NCBI GenBank assembly: GCA_035221665.1
Contig: CM069132.1
Coordinates: 144,274,001-144,338,000, forward strand
Length of the DNA stretch: 64,000 bases
DNA from: Okamejei kenojei
Lineage: Eukaryota
Direction: 5' to 3'
In this document: piece after piece, positions 4,240 through 62,915 of the stretch
How the letters are laid out: the number at the start of each line of letters is the position of its first letter
Position numbering within the stretch: position 1 is the first letter of the stretch
Translations under genes and position numbers: made by a program
The notes under the pieces: model-generated
Databases searched by the model: none
The model's input: only the letters and a program-made list of their open reading frames with translations
What the model was told of the DNA's origin: nothing

Positions 4240-5585
4240 TCCTGGACATGCTTAATGCTTTCTACGCAAACTTAGAAAGGGAGGGTATTAGTATACCTTC
4301 TTGGACCCCCACATCCTCTAGCGATACTGTAATCTCCTTCACCAAGGTTGATGTCAGAAGGTCATTCATGAGGGCGAACCCTGAAAAAGCGTCTGCCCTG
4401 ATGCTGTACCTGGCTGCGTTCTTAAGACCTGCATGTAGTTTTTGCGAGCATCTTCAACCTCCCTTTACTACGTTCCGACATCAATAATGCCCATCATTGT
4501 ATATCTTTATTATCATTTTTCTGAGTACTTACATACCCAGAGGAAAACGAAAAAAGCGTTTCTCGACCAGTGTCCATTCAGTGTGTGGTAAAAAATAAAT
4601 AAAAATAAAGAATAAAAGTACATATCACGAGTTCCGATTGGCTCTGCTCCAGTGTGTCCAGGTTGGTGTTTGGTGCACGATACTTTGGCAGGGGGCAAAG
4701 TCCGTTTATCAGTCTAATTGCCTGCGGGAAGAAGCTGAGGAGCATCCTGCTGGTTTTGCAGCTGATGCTCCTGTACCTCTTCCCAGATGGCAGGATGGAG
4801 AATATGTGATGCGATGGGTGGTAGGGGTCTTTGATGATGGAGATGGCTCTGCTAATACATCTCTTCCTGTATATGTCCAGCAATAAAGGGAGTGGAGCAC
4901 CAATAATCCTGCTGGCGGTCTTCACAATCCTGTCCAGTTGGTGCCGTTCGTACGCCTTGCAGCTCCCGAACCAGAGGTGATGCCATAGGTTAATGTGCTC
5001 TCGATTGTCCCCCTATAAAAAGTTCGTAGGTGTGCAGTGGGGAGACCTGCTTTCCGTAGTCTTCAGAGAGGGTGTAGTCGCTGCTGGGCTCTCTTGACCA
5101 GTGCTGTGGTGTTGGTCGTGGACGTCAGGTCATCTGACAGGTGGAGTCCTAGGAACTTCACACTGCTGACCCTTTCCGCATCAGCTCCATCGATGTGCAG
5201 AGGTGTATGGCGTTGTTTTCCCGCCCTCCTGAAGTCAACCACCATCTCCTTCGTTTTTCCCACGTTGAGAATGAGGTTGTGGGATTTGCACCATCCTGTG
5301 AACAGCTCCACCTCCATCCTGTATGCCGACTCATCATTGTCACTGATGAGACCCACCACTGTTGTGTCATCAGCGAACTTGTTGATGAAGTTGTTGTTGA
5401 GTCTAGCAGTACAGTCGTGTGTAAAGCAGTACAGTCGTGTGTAAGCAGTACAGTCGTGATCAAAGGACATTAATAATGTCGGTACTCAAGAAGAGTAAGG
5501 TGATATGCTTACTGACTACTTAATGACTGTTTGGCATTAGCGTCCGTGATGATGAAGTGCTTTGAGACGTTAGTTATGACGCAGT
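4240..5585. mobile_element. Older + strand Rex1/Babar-type LINE fragment (4240-4490 and 5472-5585) interrupted by a younger - strand Rex1/Babar copy (about 4500-5460)
   Basis: Minus-strand ORFs 5063..5470 (KFADDTTVVGLISDNDESAYR..WC..NL.LN..KTKEMVVDFRR) and 4578..4925 (IIKDPYHP..LPSGKRYRS). The + flanks encode LNAFYA... and KKSKV...SVMMKCFE.LV of the same clade. Confidence 0.85.
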
Positions 5586-5705
5586 TTGAAGAAGGATCCC
5601 ATCCCAAAATGTCACCTGAAGAAGGGTCTTGACCAGAGACGTTGCCTATCCATTCCCTCCACAGATGCTGCCTGACCTGCTGAGTTACTCCAACGCCTAG
5701 TTTTG
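5584..5705 (+). mobile_element. Penelope-derived short element with two degenerate tandem hammerhead cores
   Basis: ttgaagaaggatcccatcccaaaatgtcac then ctgaagaagggtcttgaccagagacgttgcc, followed by the family arm agatgctgcctgacctgctgagttactcca. Confidence 0.7.
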
Positions 5706-9607: not shown

Positions 9608-9856
9608 TGTGTAGGAAAGAACTGCAGATGCTGGTTTAAATCGAAGGTAGGCACAAAATGCTGGAGTAACTTAGCGGGGCAGGCAGCAGCTCTGGGGAGA
9701 AGGAATAGATGACGTTTCAGCTCGAGACCCTTCCTCCTTAATTTACTGATGGGGTGGAAGGTGAGGACAAGGGGAAGAAGGGTCTCAACCCAAAACGTCA
9801 CCCATTCCTTCTCTCCAGTGATGCTGCCTGTCCCGCTGATTTTGTGTCTACCCTCT
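9608..9856. mobile_element. Penelope-derived palindromic short element
   Basis: Inverted arms (cacaaaatgctggagtaac..gcagca / gatgctgcctgtcccgctga..ttgtgtcta), degenerate cores in both directions, and tggtaaa repeated at 9601-9607 and 9857-9863. Confidence 0.75.
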
Positions 9857-21667: not shown

Positions 21668-21776
21668 GTTTAATTACCGATCTACACATTATCTTGCATC
21701 CCATGGATTCTATGATTTTCTAAATTGGTTTGATGAAAGAGCATGGTATCCTCTAGGAAGAATAGTTGGAGGAACG
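21668..21776 (+). CDS. STT3B: STT3B internal coding exon (probable exon 2, 109 bp): (W)[36 protein letters not shown]
   Basis: tttgcag acceptor and GTAAGA donor. My translation matches the conserved STT3 N-terminal segment, and the frame continues into the next exon. Not in the ORF track. Confidence 0.96.
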
Positions 21777-24059: not shown

Positions 24060-24522
24060 GTCTCAGGAACAGCCTCTTCCTCTGTTATCAGGCTTCTAAA
24101 TGGTCCTTCAATAAGATAGGATTCACCTTTACCGCAAGGGACTGCATGGAATGTAGGTTCAACTGCAGTTGCAGGATTACAAGAGAAGACCACAATCAGT
24201 CTGAAGAAGGGCGCCAACCTGAAACGTCACCTAGGCATGTTCTCCAGAGATGTTGCCTGACCCGCTGAGTTACTCGAGCACTTTCTCATCATTTTTTTAA
24301 AACCAGCATCTCCAGTTCCTTCTTTCTACTTCTGTCTCTGGAACTGTTGTGCTACAATGCTGAGAGTTATATTCTGCACAATCTACCACTTCCTTTGCTC
24401 TACCCATTACTTGAGTTCGGCTTGATGTATCTATATATAGTTTTATCTGATTTGATTGGATAGCATACAAAACAAAGCTTTTCACCTTACCTCGGTACAT
24501 TTGACAGTAATAAACCTAAATT
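24060..24522 (+). mobile_element. Rex/L2-type 3' end containing a nested Penelope-derived hammerhead element (about 24195-24330)
   Basis: LINE tail caccttacctcggtacatttgacagtaataaacc; nested cagtCTGAAGAagggcgccaacctGAAACGTCacc..gatgttgcctgacccgctgagttactc. Confidence 0.7.
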
Positions 24523-31249: not shown

Positions 31250-31460
31250 ACACACAAAAAGCCGGAGTAACTCAGCAGGACAGGCAGCATTCCTTCTCTG
31301 GTGAGAAGGAATGGGTAACATTGCGGGTTGAGACCGATTCTCGACCTGAAACGTCACCCATTCGTTCTCCCCAGAGATGCTGCCTGACCCAGTGAGTTAC
31401 ACCAACTTTTTGTGTCTATCTTTGGCTTAAACCAGCATCTGCAGTTCCTTCTTACATGGA
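31250..31460 (+). mobile_element. Penelope-derived palindromic short element with 9-bp TSD
   Basis: taagaatgt at 31241-31249 and 31461-31469; inverted arms; partial core tctcgacctgaaacgtcacc. Confidence 0.82.
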
Positions 31461-33386: not shown

Positions 33387-33451
33387 GGTAGACAAAAATG
33401 GTGGAGAAACTCAGCGGGTGAAGCAGCATCTATGGAACGAAGGAAATAGGC
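33387..33451. mobile_element. Solo arm of the Penelope-derived element
   Basis: ggtagacaaaaatggtggagaaactcagcgggtgaagcagcatctatgg flanked by aaaaatt(a/c)tt. Confidence 0.7.
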
Positions 33452-46167: not shown

Positions 46168-46319
46168 GTTTAAGAAGGAACTGCAGATACTGGAAAATCG
46201 AAGGTAGACAAAAGTGCTGGAGAAACTCAGCGGGTGCGGCAGCATCTATGGGGTATCTATTTCCTTCGCTTTATAGATGTTGCCGCACCCGCTGAGTTTC
46301 TCCGGTACTTTTGTCTACC
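46168..46319 (-). mobile_element. Penelope-derived palindromic short element with 14-bp TSD
   Basis: tttaactacatata at 46154-46167 and 46320-46333; inverted arms of about 48 bp; hammerhead centre deleted. Confidence 0.88.
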
Positions 46320-54983: not shown

Positions 54984-55121
54984 TGTAGGAAGGAACTGCA
55001 GATGCTGGTTTCAACCGAAGACTTAGTCTGAAGAAGGGTCTCGACCTGAAACGTAATCCATTCCTTCTCTCATGAAATGCTGCCTGTCCTGCTGAGTTAC
55101 TCCATCATTTTGTGTCTATCT
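54984..55121. mobile_element. Penelope-derived short element with 16-bp TSD and one intact + strand hammerhead core (55028-55055)
   Basis: ttggtcaaaataaatg at 54968-54983 and 55122-55137; CTGAAGA-a-gggt-ctcg-acct-GAAA-CGTA. Confidence 0.85.
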
Positions 55122-55262
55122 TTGGTCAAAATAAATGCTGAATGTCTCGGGCCATGGGTTGAGAAACTAATTGAACAATGTTACGGGCTTTATTTTTTAA
55201 CGTGCTTGTACCTCTTCTTTGGGAGTGCAGATCATTTCACCCTCTTGTTCTCTTGCAATCAG

Positions 55263-55409
55263 GTGTATTTGCCCTGCTCCAGGCCTATGCCTTCTTGCAG
55301 TATTTGAGAGACAAGCTGACAAAGCAGGAGTTCCAGACATTATTTTTCTTGGGCGTGTCTCTTGCAGCTGGAGTGGTGCTTCTAAGTGTTATTTACTTAA
55401 CTTATACAG
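55263..55409 (+). CDS. STT3B: STT3B exon (probable exon 7, 147 bp): (G)VFALLQAYAFLQYLRDKLTKQEFQTLFFLGVSLAAGVVLLSVIYLTYT(G)
   Basis: caatcag acceptor and GTGAGT donor; lies inside ORF 55178..55576; phase 1-1. Confidence 0.96.
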
Positions 55410-55515
55410 GTGAGTCCATGTTCGTGGCGTTATTGTACCACCTATGTGTTCCTACCCCCACCTCTCGCTCTAGTTGCCTGATCACATACAAAAGTAAGAC
55501 AACTTATTTTTCAAC

Positions 55516-55791
55516 GGTGCGGCATGCTTGCGCAGCAGTACAGTTGCTGCTTTACAGCACCAGAGTCCCGGGTTAGATCCTGACTACGGGTGCTGTCTGT
55601 ACTGAGTTTGTACGTTCTCTCCGTGACCTGCATGCGTTTTCCTCCCACGTTCCAAGATTTACAGGTTGGTAGGTTAATTGGCTTGGTAAAGTTGTAAATC
55701 GTCTCTCATGTGTGTAGAACAGTGTTAATGTGCAGGGATTGCTGGACTCAGTGGGCCGAAGGGCCTGATTCCGCATTGTATCTCTAAACTA
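55516..55791 (+). mobile_element. tRNA-derived SINE
   Basis: gggttagatcctgactacgggtgctgtctgtac..gggccgaagggcctgattccgcattgtatctctaaact. Confidence 0.9.
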
Positions 55792-57424
55792 ATTTTTTTT
55801 TTTAATTTGAGAGGTGCCTAATTCTTTAGTGCAGCAAAACATTTTGCTATCTTGGTGGTGATGCCTTATCATGACTTTCAAAATAAGGTTCTTGAATGTA
55901 TATGTTCATGATGAATACGATATTTTATCAATTACCATCAGTACACAAATCCTTCACTTGTTTTCCTGTCCTTGTCCTTTTGTTGCTGAAATAATTTTCA
56001 AAAAATAATCGTGAGAGTCAACTTTAAAAACATAGAAGTGAAATATAATTGAAAGAATTAATAATATGGTTTTTTTTATAGCTTGGATGAAAATATCCTG
56101 GCTTTAGGAACAGCTGGTTAAAGAAGATTACTTTTATATCCATTGATTATTGCATTAATGATTTATCATTTTGTAAAAAGCATGATAACAGATTAAATCA
56201 GTCGAGGCAGCCGGGAAAATTCTGTAGTAAGCAGATTGAACTCGCATTGTAATGAGGATGTAGCTTCAGTACTTCAGACAGTAACAGTGACTCTGAGAGA
56301 CAATAAATGGAATTCTATTCATCATTACTAGCCATCACTGATTACAGGCAGCTAAGATAGTCACTGACCTTTCAAAGAAGAAAATAATAATTTAGATAGT
56401 TTGAAATCATTGTTCAATAGACAATAGGTGCACTGCCATTCAATGTGATCATGGCTGATCATCCACAATCAGTACCCCGTTCCTGCCTTCTCCCCATATC
56501 CCTTGACTCCGCTATCTTTAAGAGCTCTGCCTGGCTCCCTTTTGAAAGCATCCAGAAACAGCCTCCACTGCACTCTGAGGCAGAGAATTCCAGACTCACA
56601 ACTCTCTGTGTGAAAAAGTTTTTCCTCATCTTCGTTCTAAATGGCTTACCCCTTATTCTTAAACTGTGGCCTCTGGTTCTGGACTCCCCCAACATCAGGA
56701 ACATGTTTCCTACCTCTAGCACATCCAAACCATTAATAATCTTATGTTTCAATAAGACTGCCTCTCATCCTTCTAAATTCCAGAGTATACAAGCCCAGCC
56801 GCTCCATTCTATCAACATATGACAGTCCTGCTATCCCTGGAATTAACCTGGTGAACCTACGCTGCACTCCCTCAATAGCAAGAATGTCCTTCCTCAAATT
56901 GGGAGACCAAAACTGCACACAATACTCCAGGTGTCGTCTCACTAGGGCCCTGTACAACTCCAGAAGGACCTCTTTGCTCCTATGCTCAACTCCTCTTGTT
57001 ATGAAGGCCAAGATGCCATTTGCTTTCTTCACTGCATGCTGTACCTGCACGCTTACTTTCAGTGACTGATGAACAAGGATCCCCAGATCCCGTTGTCCTT
57101 CCCCCTTTCCCAACTTGACTCCATTTAGATAATAATCTGCCTTCCTGTTTTTGCCACCAAAGTGGATACCTCACATTTATCCACATTAAACTGCATCTGC
57201 CCACTCACCCAACTTGTCCAAGTCTCCCTGCATCCTCATAGCATCCTCTTCACAGTTCACACTGCCACCCAGCTTTGCGTCACATAAATTTACTAATGTT
57301 ACTTTTAATCCCTTAATCTAAATCATGAATGTATATTGTAAATAGCTGCGGTCCCAGCACTGAGCCTTATGGTACCCCACTAGTCACTGCCTGCCATTCT
57401 GAAATGGACCTGTTAATCCCTACT

Positions 57425-57685
57425 GGGGGGTTACACAAAAAGCTGGAGAAACTCAGCGGGTGCAGCAGCATCTAAGGAGCGAAGGAGATAGGCGACGTTT
57501 CGGGTCGAGACCCTTCGTCTGAAGAAGGGTCTCGACCCGAAACGTCGCCTATCAGTCTGAAGAAGGGTCTCGACCTGAAACGTCACCTATCTCCTTCGCA
57601 CCTTAGATGCTGCTGCACCCGCTGAGTTTCTCCAGCTTTTTGTGTAACCCTCGATTCTCCAGTATCTGCAGTTCCTTCTTTAACA
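57425..57685 (+). mobile_element. Penelope-derived foldback element (261 bp) with 15-bp TSD and 89-bp inverted arms
   Basis: ctgttaatccctact at 57410-57424 and 57686-57700; arms 57428-57516 and 57562-57650. Confidence 0.92.
57519..57584 (+). ncRNA. Tandem pair of minimal (Penelope-type) hammerhead ribozyme motifs
   Basis: Two copies of CUGAAGA-A-GGGU(CUCG)ACCY-GAAA-CGUC at 57519-57546 and 57557-57584, with a palindromic ACGU in place of stem III. Activity is not shown. Confidence 0.7.
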
Positions 57686-57812
57686 CTGTTAATCCCTACT
57701 CTTTGTTTCCTGTCTGCCAACCAATTTTCTATCCATGTCAACTCCCTATCCCCAATACCATGTGCTCTCATTTTGCCCACTAATCTCCTATTTTGGACCT
57801 TATCAAATGCTT

Positions 57813-58100
57813 ACAATACTCCAAGTGTGACTAAACTAAAGTTTGATACAGCTGTAACATAATTTCCTAATTTTTATACTCAATGGCCCAACCGATGAAG
57901 GCAAGCATGCCATGTGCCTTCTTTGCCATCCTAATCACTTGTGCGGGGAGCTGTGGACTTGCACCTCAGGATGACTCTATAAATCATTGCTTCTGAAAGT
58001 GCCTGCCATTTACTGTAAACTTTCCTCATGCATTTGACATCCGAAAAAGCAACACCTCATATTTGTGTCAATTAACCTCCATCTGCCATTTCTCCACCCA
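57813..58100 (-). mobile_element. Older CR1 fragment
   Basis: caatactccaagtgtg..gatgaaggcaagcatgcc..aaaagcaacacctcatatttg. Confidence 0.65.
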
Positions 58101-58594
58101 AACTTTGTCAACTGTTTGATATCCTACCTTGTTACCTGCAACTTCACCAATTTATTATTATTTGAAAGGTATGAAGTGTTGAAAGGTATAAAGCAATGTG
58201 TTAGATGACAGAGGAGGGCTCAAGCTGAAGTAAATTTCAATAAGCCGTTTCCCTGTAGGATTTGTGGATAAGTGGAATGTAAATCTTGTAAAGAGCTAAG
58301 CAAATATCTGGGAATCAGATTTATGAATAAACATAAATCTGGGAGAAGGTTTCTTTCATTCTGAGGCAAGAGTGTTTGTGTGGGTAAGATTGACTAAATA
58401 TTGAGCAGTTTCAGAGATTTACTGAGGTCAAGAGGAGGCCTTGGAGAAACTTTATCTGGAAAGGATTTGTACCAATTAAGTTCATCATTAGAAGGAACAG
58501 ATATTTCTTATTTTATATTTGTTACTGCTCTTGAACGCCCAGTGACTAATGCCACAACTCTTTCTCTAATGGTAAATGTTTGGAGTTATAGGTA

Positions 58595-59604
58595 CCGTAT
58601 TTCCTGGCAATGAAGACGCTATTTTTTTTACGCAAAAATAAGGCACAGAAATGTACCTGCATCTTGGAGGCCAAAGGTTAGGTTGTTAGCCAAGAAAGAA
58701 TCAAAAATTATGTTGCTGTACTGAGGACTAGCCAAGTCTATCCCTGATTGCTGGCAGCTGATGGGGCACAGCTGTAAAAGGACAGTGCCGCTGGGGGGGG
58801 AGAGAGTTCCTTTCACAGTGTGTGGGGAGTCTGGCCCGGGTCAGCATGGCAGGAGCGTTGAGAAGGAGGGGGCTGGGGATCATGCCAGCAACGCACTCAC
58901 TCACCGCTGCTGCGGCGCTCCGGGCGCGGAGCCACCTCATTGTGGCCGGGGAGGGAAGTAGCTCGGGTGGCTGCGAGCGGCTGCCGGGACCGGACAGTGG
59001 AACCGACCGCCACATCGGTGCCTTCTTCCGGCCCGCTCACCTCTGGTAGTGCTCCCCGCCTGAACACCTGTCTCCTGCCGCTCGCTGGCCTTGCTCATGT
59101 CAGCCGCTTTCCGCAAATCCTTAAATTCCGACTGCCGCCGGGAGCAGGACATGGCCTCACTTGCTGCGTTGGGGGACACTGCGAGGCATTCACTGCCCTG
59201 TCCGTGTCTTTCAATGTAGACCGGACAATGGGGGAACCAGCTCAAGAGCAATGATCATAGAGTGGAGAGGGTCAGCGGGCGATGGATAACTGGACAGCAG
59301 GCGGTGGAGCTTCCTCCTGTGTCAGCGCGAGTAACCTCGATTGGTATTGTCATTCAATAAGATCACAACTGATTCAACTCGTTACGTTTTTCCCACCATC
59401 TCTCCATCTGCCGTCACCCTCCACCCCCCACCCATTCAGTCATTCAGAATGGAGGAGATCTGGAAGCCTTGGGCAAATTGAATTGTTACTTTTTTTTGAG
59501 CATGAGAAATTCTATGTCCCCCCCCAGCCTTTTTACAAAACTTAGCAACTCAAAATGGAGGTGCGTCTTCGACGCAGGTGCGTCTTCATTGCCGGGAATT
59601 ACGC
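58595..59604. mobile_element. Non-autonomous Tc1/mariner-superfamily (Tc2/pogo-like) DNA transposon, 1010 bp
   Basis: 25-bp TIRs CCGTATTTCCTGGCAATGAAGACGC (58595-58619) and GCGTCTTCATTGCCGGGAATTACGC (59580-59604), 22/25 match; TA on both flanks; GC-rich interior with no transposase. Confidence 0.82.
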
Positions 59605-59662
59605 TATAAACACTGTAAGTGGAGAAACATTTTTCCAAGTGTTGCTGCTGTTTTTGTTTCAG

Positions 59663-59711
59663 GATATATTGCGCCATGGAGTGGAAGATTCTATTCACTT
59701 TGGGATACAGG
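59663..59711 (+). CDS. STT3B: STT3B exon (probable exon 8, 49 bp): (G)YIAPWSGRFYSLWDT(G)
   Basis: tttgtttcag acceptor and GTAAGA donor; phase 1-2; PWxGRFYSL motif. Confidence 0.95.
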
Positions 59712-60090
59712 GTAAGAATGTTTAAGACCTCACTTATTTTTTTTTATTTGGGTTTGGCTTGGATCAAATGAGCAATGTTTATAATCATGATAATTTCAGT
59801 TACATTTCAGGCAGAGAACTGATTTAACTGTATAGTCCCGTTTTAAGTTTAGTTTAAATTGCTTTGACATATTTAACGAAGGATGAATTAGCTCTACATA
59901 CTTCTCCGCCAGTAGTAGTGGCATGTTTTCAGAACAAAGCACCTTTATGAAAGTCTATAGCTTTTATTAAATTTGAGTGTATACCTCTCATAGTTCTCCT
60001 CAGAATATTCATCTAGATGGTTGTTTCCGTAGTGGTGGAGATATTTGGGATTGGCTGATCCTACAAAGCCACTTGTAGTGACTTGAGGAT

Positions 60091-62241: not shown

Positions 62242-62915
62242 GATCGTTTCGCTGAACACCTTCGCTCCATCTGCCTGGACCTACCTGATCTCTAGGTTGC
62301 CAAACATTTTAATTCCCCTTCCCATTCCCACACTGACCTTTCTGTCTGAGGCCTCTTCCATTGTCAGAGTGAGACCAAATGCAAATTGGAGGAACAGCAT
62401 CTCCTATTTTGCTTGGGCAGCTTACAGCCCAGGGGTATGATTATTGAAGGTAGATACAAAATGCTGGAGTAACTATGGTATGATTATTGATTTCTCTAAC
62501 TTCAAATACCCTTGCACTCCCTCTCTCTCCATCCCTCCCCAACCCAAGTCATATCAGCTTCAAAGTTGTCTTGGGTACACAAAAAGCTGGAGAAACTCAG
62601 CGGGTGCAGCAGCATCTAAGGAGCGAAGGAGATAGGCGACGTTTCGAGTCGAGACCCTTTGTTGAGTCTCATTGTCTGTACTCGTTCTCACCTAGGCCAC
62701 AGCTAACAATGGCCTGTTTCCTTTATCATCATTACCTTTTTTGCATATCTCTGTCATTTGTTCTATATCTCTCTACAAAGCCATCAATATCTATTGTCCC
62801 CCTCTCCCCTGACTCTGTCTGAAGGAGGGTCTAGACCCAAAAAGTCACCTACTCCTTCTCTCCAGAGATGCTGTCTGACCCGCTGAGTTGCTCCAGCTTT
62901 TTGTGTCTATCTTGG
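62242..62915 (+). mobile_element. Penelope-like retroelement 3' end: GIY-YIG C-terminus pseudo-ORF, 3' UTR, degenerate hammerhead, and two inverted self-inserts
   Basis: 62242-62447 translates DRFAEHLRSICLDLPDL*VAKHFNSPSHSHTDLSV*GLFHCQSETKCKLEEQHLLFCLGSLQPRGMII. Core remnant ctgaaggagggtctagacccaaaaagtcacc at 62819-62849, then the family arm. Confidence 0.85.

Follow-up and report, generated by a model that had tools for sequence, protein, structure and literature searches.

Here, we report a reading in which we have high confidence: two head-to-tail hammerhead motifs in the skate Okamejei kenojei, at 57519-57546 and 57557-57584 of the 64,000-nt stretch that was analysed (the window), are part of a 5′-truncated Penelope-like element (PLE) insertion that is bounded by a target-site duplication (TSD) and lies in an intron of STT3B, and both hammerheads are predicted to be hidden in a long hairpin and likely do not cut the STT3B pre-mRNA. 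The motif is real and of a known kind, and the locus is an ordinary one. The claim that the pair cuts STT3B, raised in an earlier note on this DNA, matters little: the genome holds over 43,000 exact copies of the motif and some 500 close tandems like this one, and among these the locus is a poor candidate for cutting because of its antisense arm.

The hammerhead pair and its host intron

The two copies have the form CTGAAGA-A-GGGT-CTCG-ACC(C/T)-GAAA-CGTC and are separated by a 10-nt spacer (57547-57556). Each, on the forward strand, combines the CUGAAGA box and an additional A with a stem II of 4 bp, a GAAA, an ACGU palindrome and the triplet GUC, with predicted cuts after 57546 in copy 1 and after 57584 in copy 2. 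Stem III is the bare ACGU palindrome without a loop, as in hammerheads of the dimer type, and stem I is 2 bp in the pair list; no longer stem I using the native flanks was found by eye. The earlier note had described two motif copies 10 nt apart, each with the core, the extra A, the 4-bp stem II, the GUC triplet, the ACGU stem III and a stem I of about 2 bp, and the sequence, the pair list and our descriptor scan agree with it on all these points. Its word "intact" holds for the core nucleotides, every one of which is present in both copies, but copy 2 has a CpG-type C>T change at 57576 that turns the conserved G10.1-C11.1 pair, kept by copy 1, into G-U.

In the window, a relaxed descriptor, CTGANGA-N13-GAAA, is matched six times where chance would give 0.37, and none of 100 shuffles reached six. 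The descriptor scan finds the motif, but Rfam hammerhead models do not: among nine matches with E up to 10 in an Rfam scan of 55000-60000 there was no hammerhead family. The Rfam matches are to miRNA-hairpin models only, all below the gathering score, and are accounted for by the inverted repeat described below, and an antisense hammerhead in the inverted arm is ruled out, the arm being without a CUGA box. The pair is composed of minimal, dimer-type type I hammerheads of a PLE, in sense orientation in an STT3B intron.

The host gene is on the forward strand, with the best PDB match to STT3B (E 1.5e-57, against 4e-38 for STT3A). Its exons were located by sequence motifs taken to be those of STT3B. 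The intron spans 55410-59662 (4,253 nt), and its GT..AG joint was read in contigs from three of four runs (X15, X16 and X17), runs whose RNA status is a guess, two of them being flagged as probably DNA, and which may or may not carry the insertion. The upstream exon (55263..55409, forward strand) is placed by translation and by contig pieces together with the joint in these three runs, and the downstream exon (59663..59711, forward strand) by translation and the contig joint. The PDB match and the spliced joint confirm the sense orientation within STT3B that the earlier note had proposed; its numbering of the flanking exons as probable exons 7 and 8 agrees with six upstream exon-like stretches (at 21672, 29437, 42145, 44701, 53433 and 55263), but exon 1 was searched for and not located. 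The remaining exons extend about 10 kb beyond the window on the downstream side (L071-L076), where two near-identical antisense copies of the hammerhead, both intact, lie about 18 kb apart (L073 and L075), which suggests a local duplication.

Other copies of the PLE terminus are scattered over the STT3B locus. The preceding intron holds an older sense hammerhead at 55026-55115, its core still intact and with a GUA triplet, 235 nt before the exon, and further copies are at 62573-62662, 62814-62906, 46168-46303, 33389-33451, 31252-31453, 24195-24325, 9615-9843 and 5584-5692. Several of these are inverted pairs, and that at 5584-5692 is an older degenerate tandem.

Architecture and origin of the insertion

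The insertion (57425-57685, 261 bp) is flanked by an exact 15-bp TSD, with the hammerhead pair in its middle. The left TSD copy (57410..57424) is given by the exact direct repeat D10 and by the empty site that further members of the host repeat show, where the joint runs from 57411 to 57688, skipping 276 letters with 13 shared; the right copy (57686..57700) is given by the direct repeat, both on the forward strand. In what follows, positions in the terminal repeat are counted from the A of CAGT (+1), which puts the cut site after +31. From left to right, the insertion comprises an inverted arm, a 37-nt partial copy, a full short terminal copy and a 35-nt tail. The arm (57425..57516, reverse strand) is a 5′-truncated terminal repeat that begins at about +9 and lacks a tail as well as the CUGA box, as seen from the inverted repeats I1 (95 nt, 95%) and I2 (33 nt, 97%) and from the alignment of young copies. 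The partial tandem copy (57517..57553, forward strand) covers +2 to +38, from the direct repeat D1 and the comparison with L004, and its final C at 57553 is common to the next copy. That copy (57553..57650, forward strand) is a full short PLE terminal repeat that starts at the initiator-like CAGT and differs from the common young sequence by three private substitutions (57576, 57585 and 57600). The optional tail of about 35 nt occupies 57651..57685 on the forward strand. Among 103 young copies, a tail was scored in 38 and an inverted arm in 36. The right-hand copy and tail together carry four substitutions relative to the common young sequence, two of them at CpG, indicating that the insertion is young and already drifting.

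The insertion site lies beside or within an older high-copy LINE-like repeat, probably of the CR1 type by resemblance, that has a reading frame at 56742..57170 (reverse strand; no meaningful Pfam match). Summed contig depth over 57000-57800 in four DNA runs is 10^5-10^6, with both flanks in high-copy repeat.

A partial tandem, an inverted 5′-truncated copy and an optional tail of 30-40 bp form the described pattern of PLE insertions (PMC8557442, PMC3846280; for the tail also PMC11167929), and the tail length is attributed to the distance between two reverse transcriptase (RT) start sites of an enzyme that cuts and extends both target strands (PMC11167929). The assignment of the minimal hammerhead to a PLE, already suggested in the earlier note, stands on this layout together with a GIY-YIG frame upstream of the same terminus in longer copies (see below).

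On this pattern, the insertion may have arisen as follows. The PLE enzyme would prime at the tail end and copy about 130 nt to the RNA 5′ end (57553-57554); re-priming 38 nt back on 1 nt of microhomology, the shared C, would then copy the hammerhead again to the end of the RNA, and the inverted arm would stem from another cDNA, which began at the start site without the tail and was primed on the opposite target strand. In the nucleus, the arm would be transcribed first and pair with copy 1 and then copy 2 to form a duplex of about 95 bp that would be spliced out with the intron and is likely a putative ADAR substrate. Judged from its sequence, the 95-bp near-perfect inverted repeat at 57428-57650 of the pre-mRNA is a likely target of A-to-I editing. 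With 36 of the 103 young copies scored as having such an arm, duplexes of this kind must be very common in the genome.

Predicted folding and cleavage

A nested secondary structure in which the two hammerheads form a dimer in cis can be drawn, in which a 6-nt loop caps the stem I of one of them; to this extent the earlier proposal that the head-to-tail pair supplies both dimer partners stands, but the fold is predicted to be costly. For the bare pair, the cis dimer is at -2.3 and the ensemble at -18.0 kcal/mol (15.7 above), a gap of about 16 kcal/mol that is uncalibrated, as nearest-neighbour energies omit Mg2+, tertiary contacts and proteins and no known-active minimal dimer served as control. 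In the whole element, the cis dimer lies 55 kcal/mol above the ensemble; the long hairpin is at -195 kcal/mol (z -22). Natural tandems elsewhere score 13-28 kcal/mol when free of an arm and 74-85 kcal/mol with one.

Folding of nascent chains gives the same picture. Stem II of copy 1 has a probability of 0.0 from its synthesis onward, and that of copy 2 falls from 0.31 at 57590 to 0.002 by 57620 (0.002-0.004 once the partner of the arm has been made). Since the antisense arm is transcribed first, copy 1 is predicted to be trapped at once and copy 2 after it, in line with the earlier caveat that the upstream arm can sequester one copy. The hammerheads are thus predicted to be folded away, and cutting of the STT3B pre-mRNA is likely absent.

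Could the pair, as the earlier note supposed, nevertheless nick the intron by forming the cis dimer through ACGU, often enough to matter? Its complete cores, the drawable nested structure and the sense orientation speak for this, and dimer cleavage of PLE hammerheads has been published (PMC4209133; review PMC6765202). Within that literature, the minimal hammerhead of schistosomes shows no cleavage as a monomer and low cleavage as a dimer (PMC4209133), and one of nine published Xenopus PLE hammerhead dimers cut. At the locus, the predicted penalty in context, the predicted co-transcriptional trapping of copy 1, the 2-bp stem I and the G10.1-U11.1 pair of copy 2 all argue against nicking, as does the spliced joint 55410-59662, which in X15, X16 and X17 is compatible with cutting at a low level. 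Moreover, about 230 intact pairs are expected genome-wide (14 of 30 extrapolated to 491), most of them without an inverted arm, so that nothing singles out the STT3B locus. Raw reads of run X21, which is from another organism and of whose aligned reads 98% continue into sequence unlike this DNA, have no pile-up at 57546 or 57584, a result that favours neither side. We consider it highly improbable that the pair nicks this intron often enough to matter, or cuts the STT3B pre-mRNA to any meaningful degree, and the claim of intron nicking is not supported.

Occasional cutting of copy 2 during transcription, assisted by a protein or in trans and with little effect on the mRNA, is also very doubtful. 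An RNA ending at 57590 would, according to the nascent-chain folds, leave a short interval for copy 2 to pair in trans while its stem II is partly free (0.31), before the downstream partner is made; a possible partner is the intact hammerhead at 55028, in sense orientation one intron earlier, and the hammerhead of an anole PLE cuts only with the PLE protein (PMC11167929). Against this, the interval is over after some 30 nt of elongation, and neither the genomic 5′ ends nor the tandem junctions are in excess at the cut site. The anole protein needs the first 172 nt of the ORF (PMC11167929); if this requirement, transferred here by analogy, applies to the skate family, the locus, which stops at the tail, probably lacks the region needed. 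The preferred reading therefore remains a hammerhead pair hidden in a hairpin within a PLE insertion, and the estimated 180 or so intact tandems without an arm (11 of 30 scaled to 491) offer better natural material for asking whether a cis dimer in an intron ever cuts a host transcript.

Parent element and related systems

The insertion itself carries no coding sequence; a frame is found in relatives. Longer copies that share the terminus have one upstream frame with RT motifs, CX4CxxC and GIY-YIG; a GIY-YIG frame precedes the terminus in L013, L017, L057 and L168, and the CX4CxxC linker was read in L013, L057 and L168. On the parent frames, Pfam gives RVT_1 at E 0.003 and GIY-YIG at E 0.0004-0.006, neither of which reaches the gathering score; L251 has a 555-aa frame with RVT_1 (E 0.003) and GIY-YIG (E 0.006), likewise below the gathering score, in which RT motifs are visible. 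A PDB search with the RT frame gave no match, and a full-length parent with a 5′ pLTR and ORF start was not found in three extensions. As judged from sequence, the CX4CxxC linker points to the Neptune/Nematis type, for which a CX2-5CxxC linker is the definition (PMC8557442), and excludes only Penelope/Poseidon. A search of literature titles and abstracts, with Repbase and most subscription journals outside its scope, yielded nothing on this PLE family or on an overlap of promoter and hammerhead; the cartilaginous-fish retrozyme tables of Li et al. (2026, bioRxiv 10.64898/2026.07.22.740005) and the 2014 alignments may list the family.

The closest relatives of the motif are the minimal hammerheads in the pLTRs of metazoan PLEs (Cervera and de la Pena 2014, PMC4209133). 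Like ours, these are type I, with an extra nucleotide between A9 and stem II, a G10.1-C11.1 pair (copy 1 at our locus), palindromic 15.2-16.2 without a loop 3, a place in a terminal repeat and thousands of solo copies, and a Drosophila virilis variant has the same 2-bp helix I. In contrast, schistosome hammerheads have a stem II of 7-8 bp and a stem I of 4-5 bp where the locus has 4 and 2 bp, coelacanth and Xenopus have 4,000-9,000 copies where the skate genome has 43,165 exact ones, and hammerhead copies in these PLEs are about 3 kb apart, whereas those of the locus are 38 nt apart (PMC4209133).

Among complete elements, the EN+ PLEs of the Neptune/Nematis type (Craig et al. 2021, PMC8557442) have RT, CX2-5CxxC and, at the C terminus, GIY-YIG, like the longer skate copies, and share with the locus the partial tandem, the inverted truncated copy, the tail and the TSD (PMC8557442; Arkhipova et al. 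2013, PMC3846280); the skate insertion differs in having no coding sequence, and its putative clade is suggested by the linker of longer copies. PAc (Poseidon) of Anolis carolinensis (Frangieh et al. 2024, PMC11167929) has two RT start sites giving an optional tail; both strands of its target are extended, and its main template is uncut RNA, which agrees with the skate 5′-end map given below; it is of a different clade, and its ORF starts inside the hammerhead.

Non-LTR retrozymes likewise consist of tandem type I hammerheads from PLE terminal repeats (bioRxiv 10.64898/2026.07.22.740005), and the two consecutive hammerheads could be read as a tiny member of this class, made of hammerhead monomers that form RNA circles and spread independently; in animals, retrozymes have their source in PLE terminal repeats, and a cartilaginous fish is among the hosts (same preprint). 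We give this reading virtually no weight: reported retrozymes have monomers of 51-972 bp in families or arrays, whereas the locus has a one-off 38-nt duplication contained in a single TSD-bounded PLE insertion. There is also no family of identical 38-nt monomers (three of 100 among the junctions listed match that of 57425-57685), and spacers vary by locus, which fits independent template jumps and not a propagating monomer.

Abundance and decay of the copies

Across the genome, exact matches number 43,165 for a 30-mer that covers the hammerhead (0 for the reversed control) and 45,718 for a downstream 32-mer; a BLAST search with the terminal 735 nt gave 92 matches in 340 kb of fixed-step samples. 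Close tandems number 491 with spacers of 4-14 and 40 with spacers of 0-3. In the first 30 tandem loci fetched, both cores are intact in 14 (3 with an inverted arm and 11 without), and L022 and L031 reproduce the whole layout of 57425-57685.

Core, stem II and ACGU are all kept in 10 of 103 downstream-anchored copies from 40 sampled 10-kb stretches and the window. Stem II could be read without gaps in 45 of these 103, and among the resulting 180 cells 23 are broken, 13 have a one-sided and one a two-sided change; a younger-biased set of 47 copies has no two-sided change (0/188), with only a U-A/U-G subfamily variant besides. The stem II covariation that the earlier note had looked to as a sign of function is therefore largely absent in a comparison that, being of closely related copies within one genome, has low power, and stem II decays rather than covaries among the sampled genomic copies. 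A point against our reading is that the core is retained across subfamilies with differing flanks, so that selection probably acts on it in the parent element. What PLE hammerheads do has been called unclear (PMC8557442), and this family is a useful test bed for that question.

Where the copies begin

The 5′ ends of 103 young copies, whose sole selection was a downstream anchor (contig C1 supplied the first 100 matches and fetched stretches three more), cluster at the initiator-like CAGT by the 5′ edge of the hammerhead and avoid the GUC cut site: 57 are at -4..+11, 9 at +12..+29, only 1 at +30..+34 and 4 at +35..+46; upstream, 6 are at -50..-5 and 26 lie beyond that. In the main cluster of 57, an inverted arm adjoins 21 copies, a junction repeat of at least 10 nt, scored as a TSD, marks 13 (at least one of which, L142, is an internal deletion instead), and 23 show neither; one of the 57, L148, may be a chimera with another subfamily. 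Clustering at CAGT, with one end in 103 near the cut, indicates that the retrotransposed RNA was likely uncut and may start at CAGT, in agreement with the in vitro finding that uncut RNA is the template.

Tandem junctions point the same way. The cut site accounts for 15 of 40 short-spacer junctions, and two others that involve microhomology come to about 15 apiece, which means no excess, in a rough comparison in which the other junctions were scaled from three of 100 among those listed and the anchors differ. RT jumps onto cleaved 5′ fragments were rejected, since the excess of junctions expected at the cut site is not seen.

The minimal hammerhead might double as an internal RNA polymerase II promoter of the family, a tentative reading that we regard as a genuine possibility and not as the probable one. 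It would place the start site at the A in CCAGTCT (YYANWYY), where stem I has its 5′ edge, with stem II carrying an MTE-like motif and the ACGU "stem III" serving as the DPE core. CCAGTCT fits the initiator consensus, MTE matches 9/12 at +18..+29 and DPE 4/5 at +28..+32, the DPE standing at its usual position relative to the start site. CAGT or YAGT is retained across subfamilies. For the consensus sequences we used PMC1475891, which cautions that the rate of false positives is high, and the Penelope element of D. virilis has a TATA-less internal promoter whose DPE contains ACGT.

An extra G at the junction, as from a cap, is weakly enriched, which is suggestive: exactly one extra G is found in 5 of 14 TSD-bounded copies preceded by G and in 1 of 11 preceded by A or T, a difference that is not significant, in a set where 8 of the 30 A/T copies are one insertion inside another repeat and two more share one TSD. 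Genome-wide, AGTCTG is preceded by G 1,271 times and by A or T 2,309 times, a ratio of 0.55 against about 0.36 expected from the GC content of the window. If the promoter reading is true, the tens of thousands of copies of 95-130 bp would be run-off cDNAs from the RT start sites to a capped 5′ end, the genome would hold a fossil record of retrotransposition in vivo from uncleaved RNA, and hammerhead conservation would partly reflect promoter constraint.

By analogy with D. virilis Penelope, where the 3′ splice site is likewise at YAG (PMC4209133), the YAG that follows a pyrimidine tract could alternatively mark the 3′ splice site of a PLE intron. In a check for spliced templates, copies starting at +1..+3 have no common upstream exon. 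A pyrimidine-rich tract ending in YAG lies directly 5′ of the hammerhead in L001, L005, L025 and L082, across different subfamilies.

The repeated insertion among the A/T-preceded copies was found at eight of the 30 sampled loci (L218, L219, L221, L224, L225, L226, L237 and L240), with identical flanks on both sides. It is one short PLE insertion made of an inverted tail and a terminal copy, and its flanking sequence indicates that it is carried and amplified inside another repeat.
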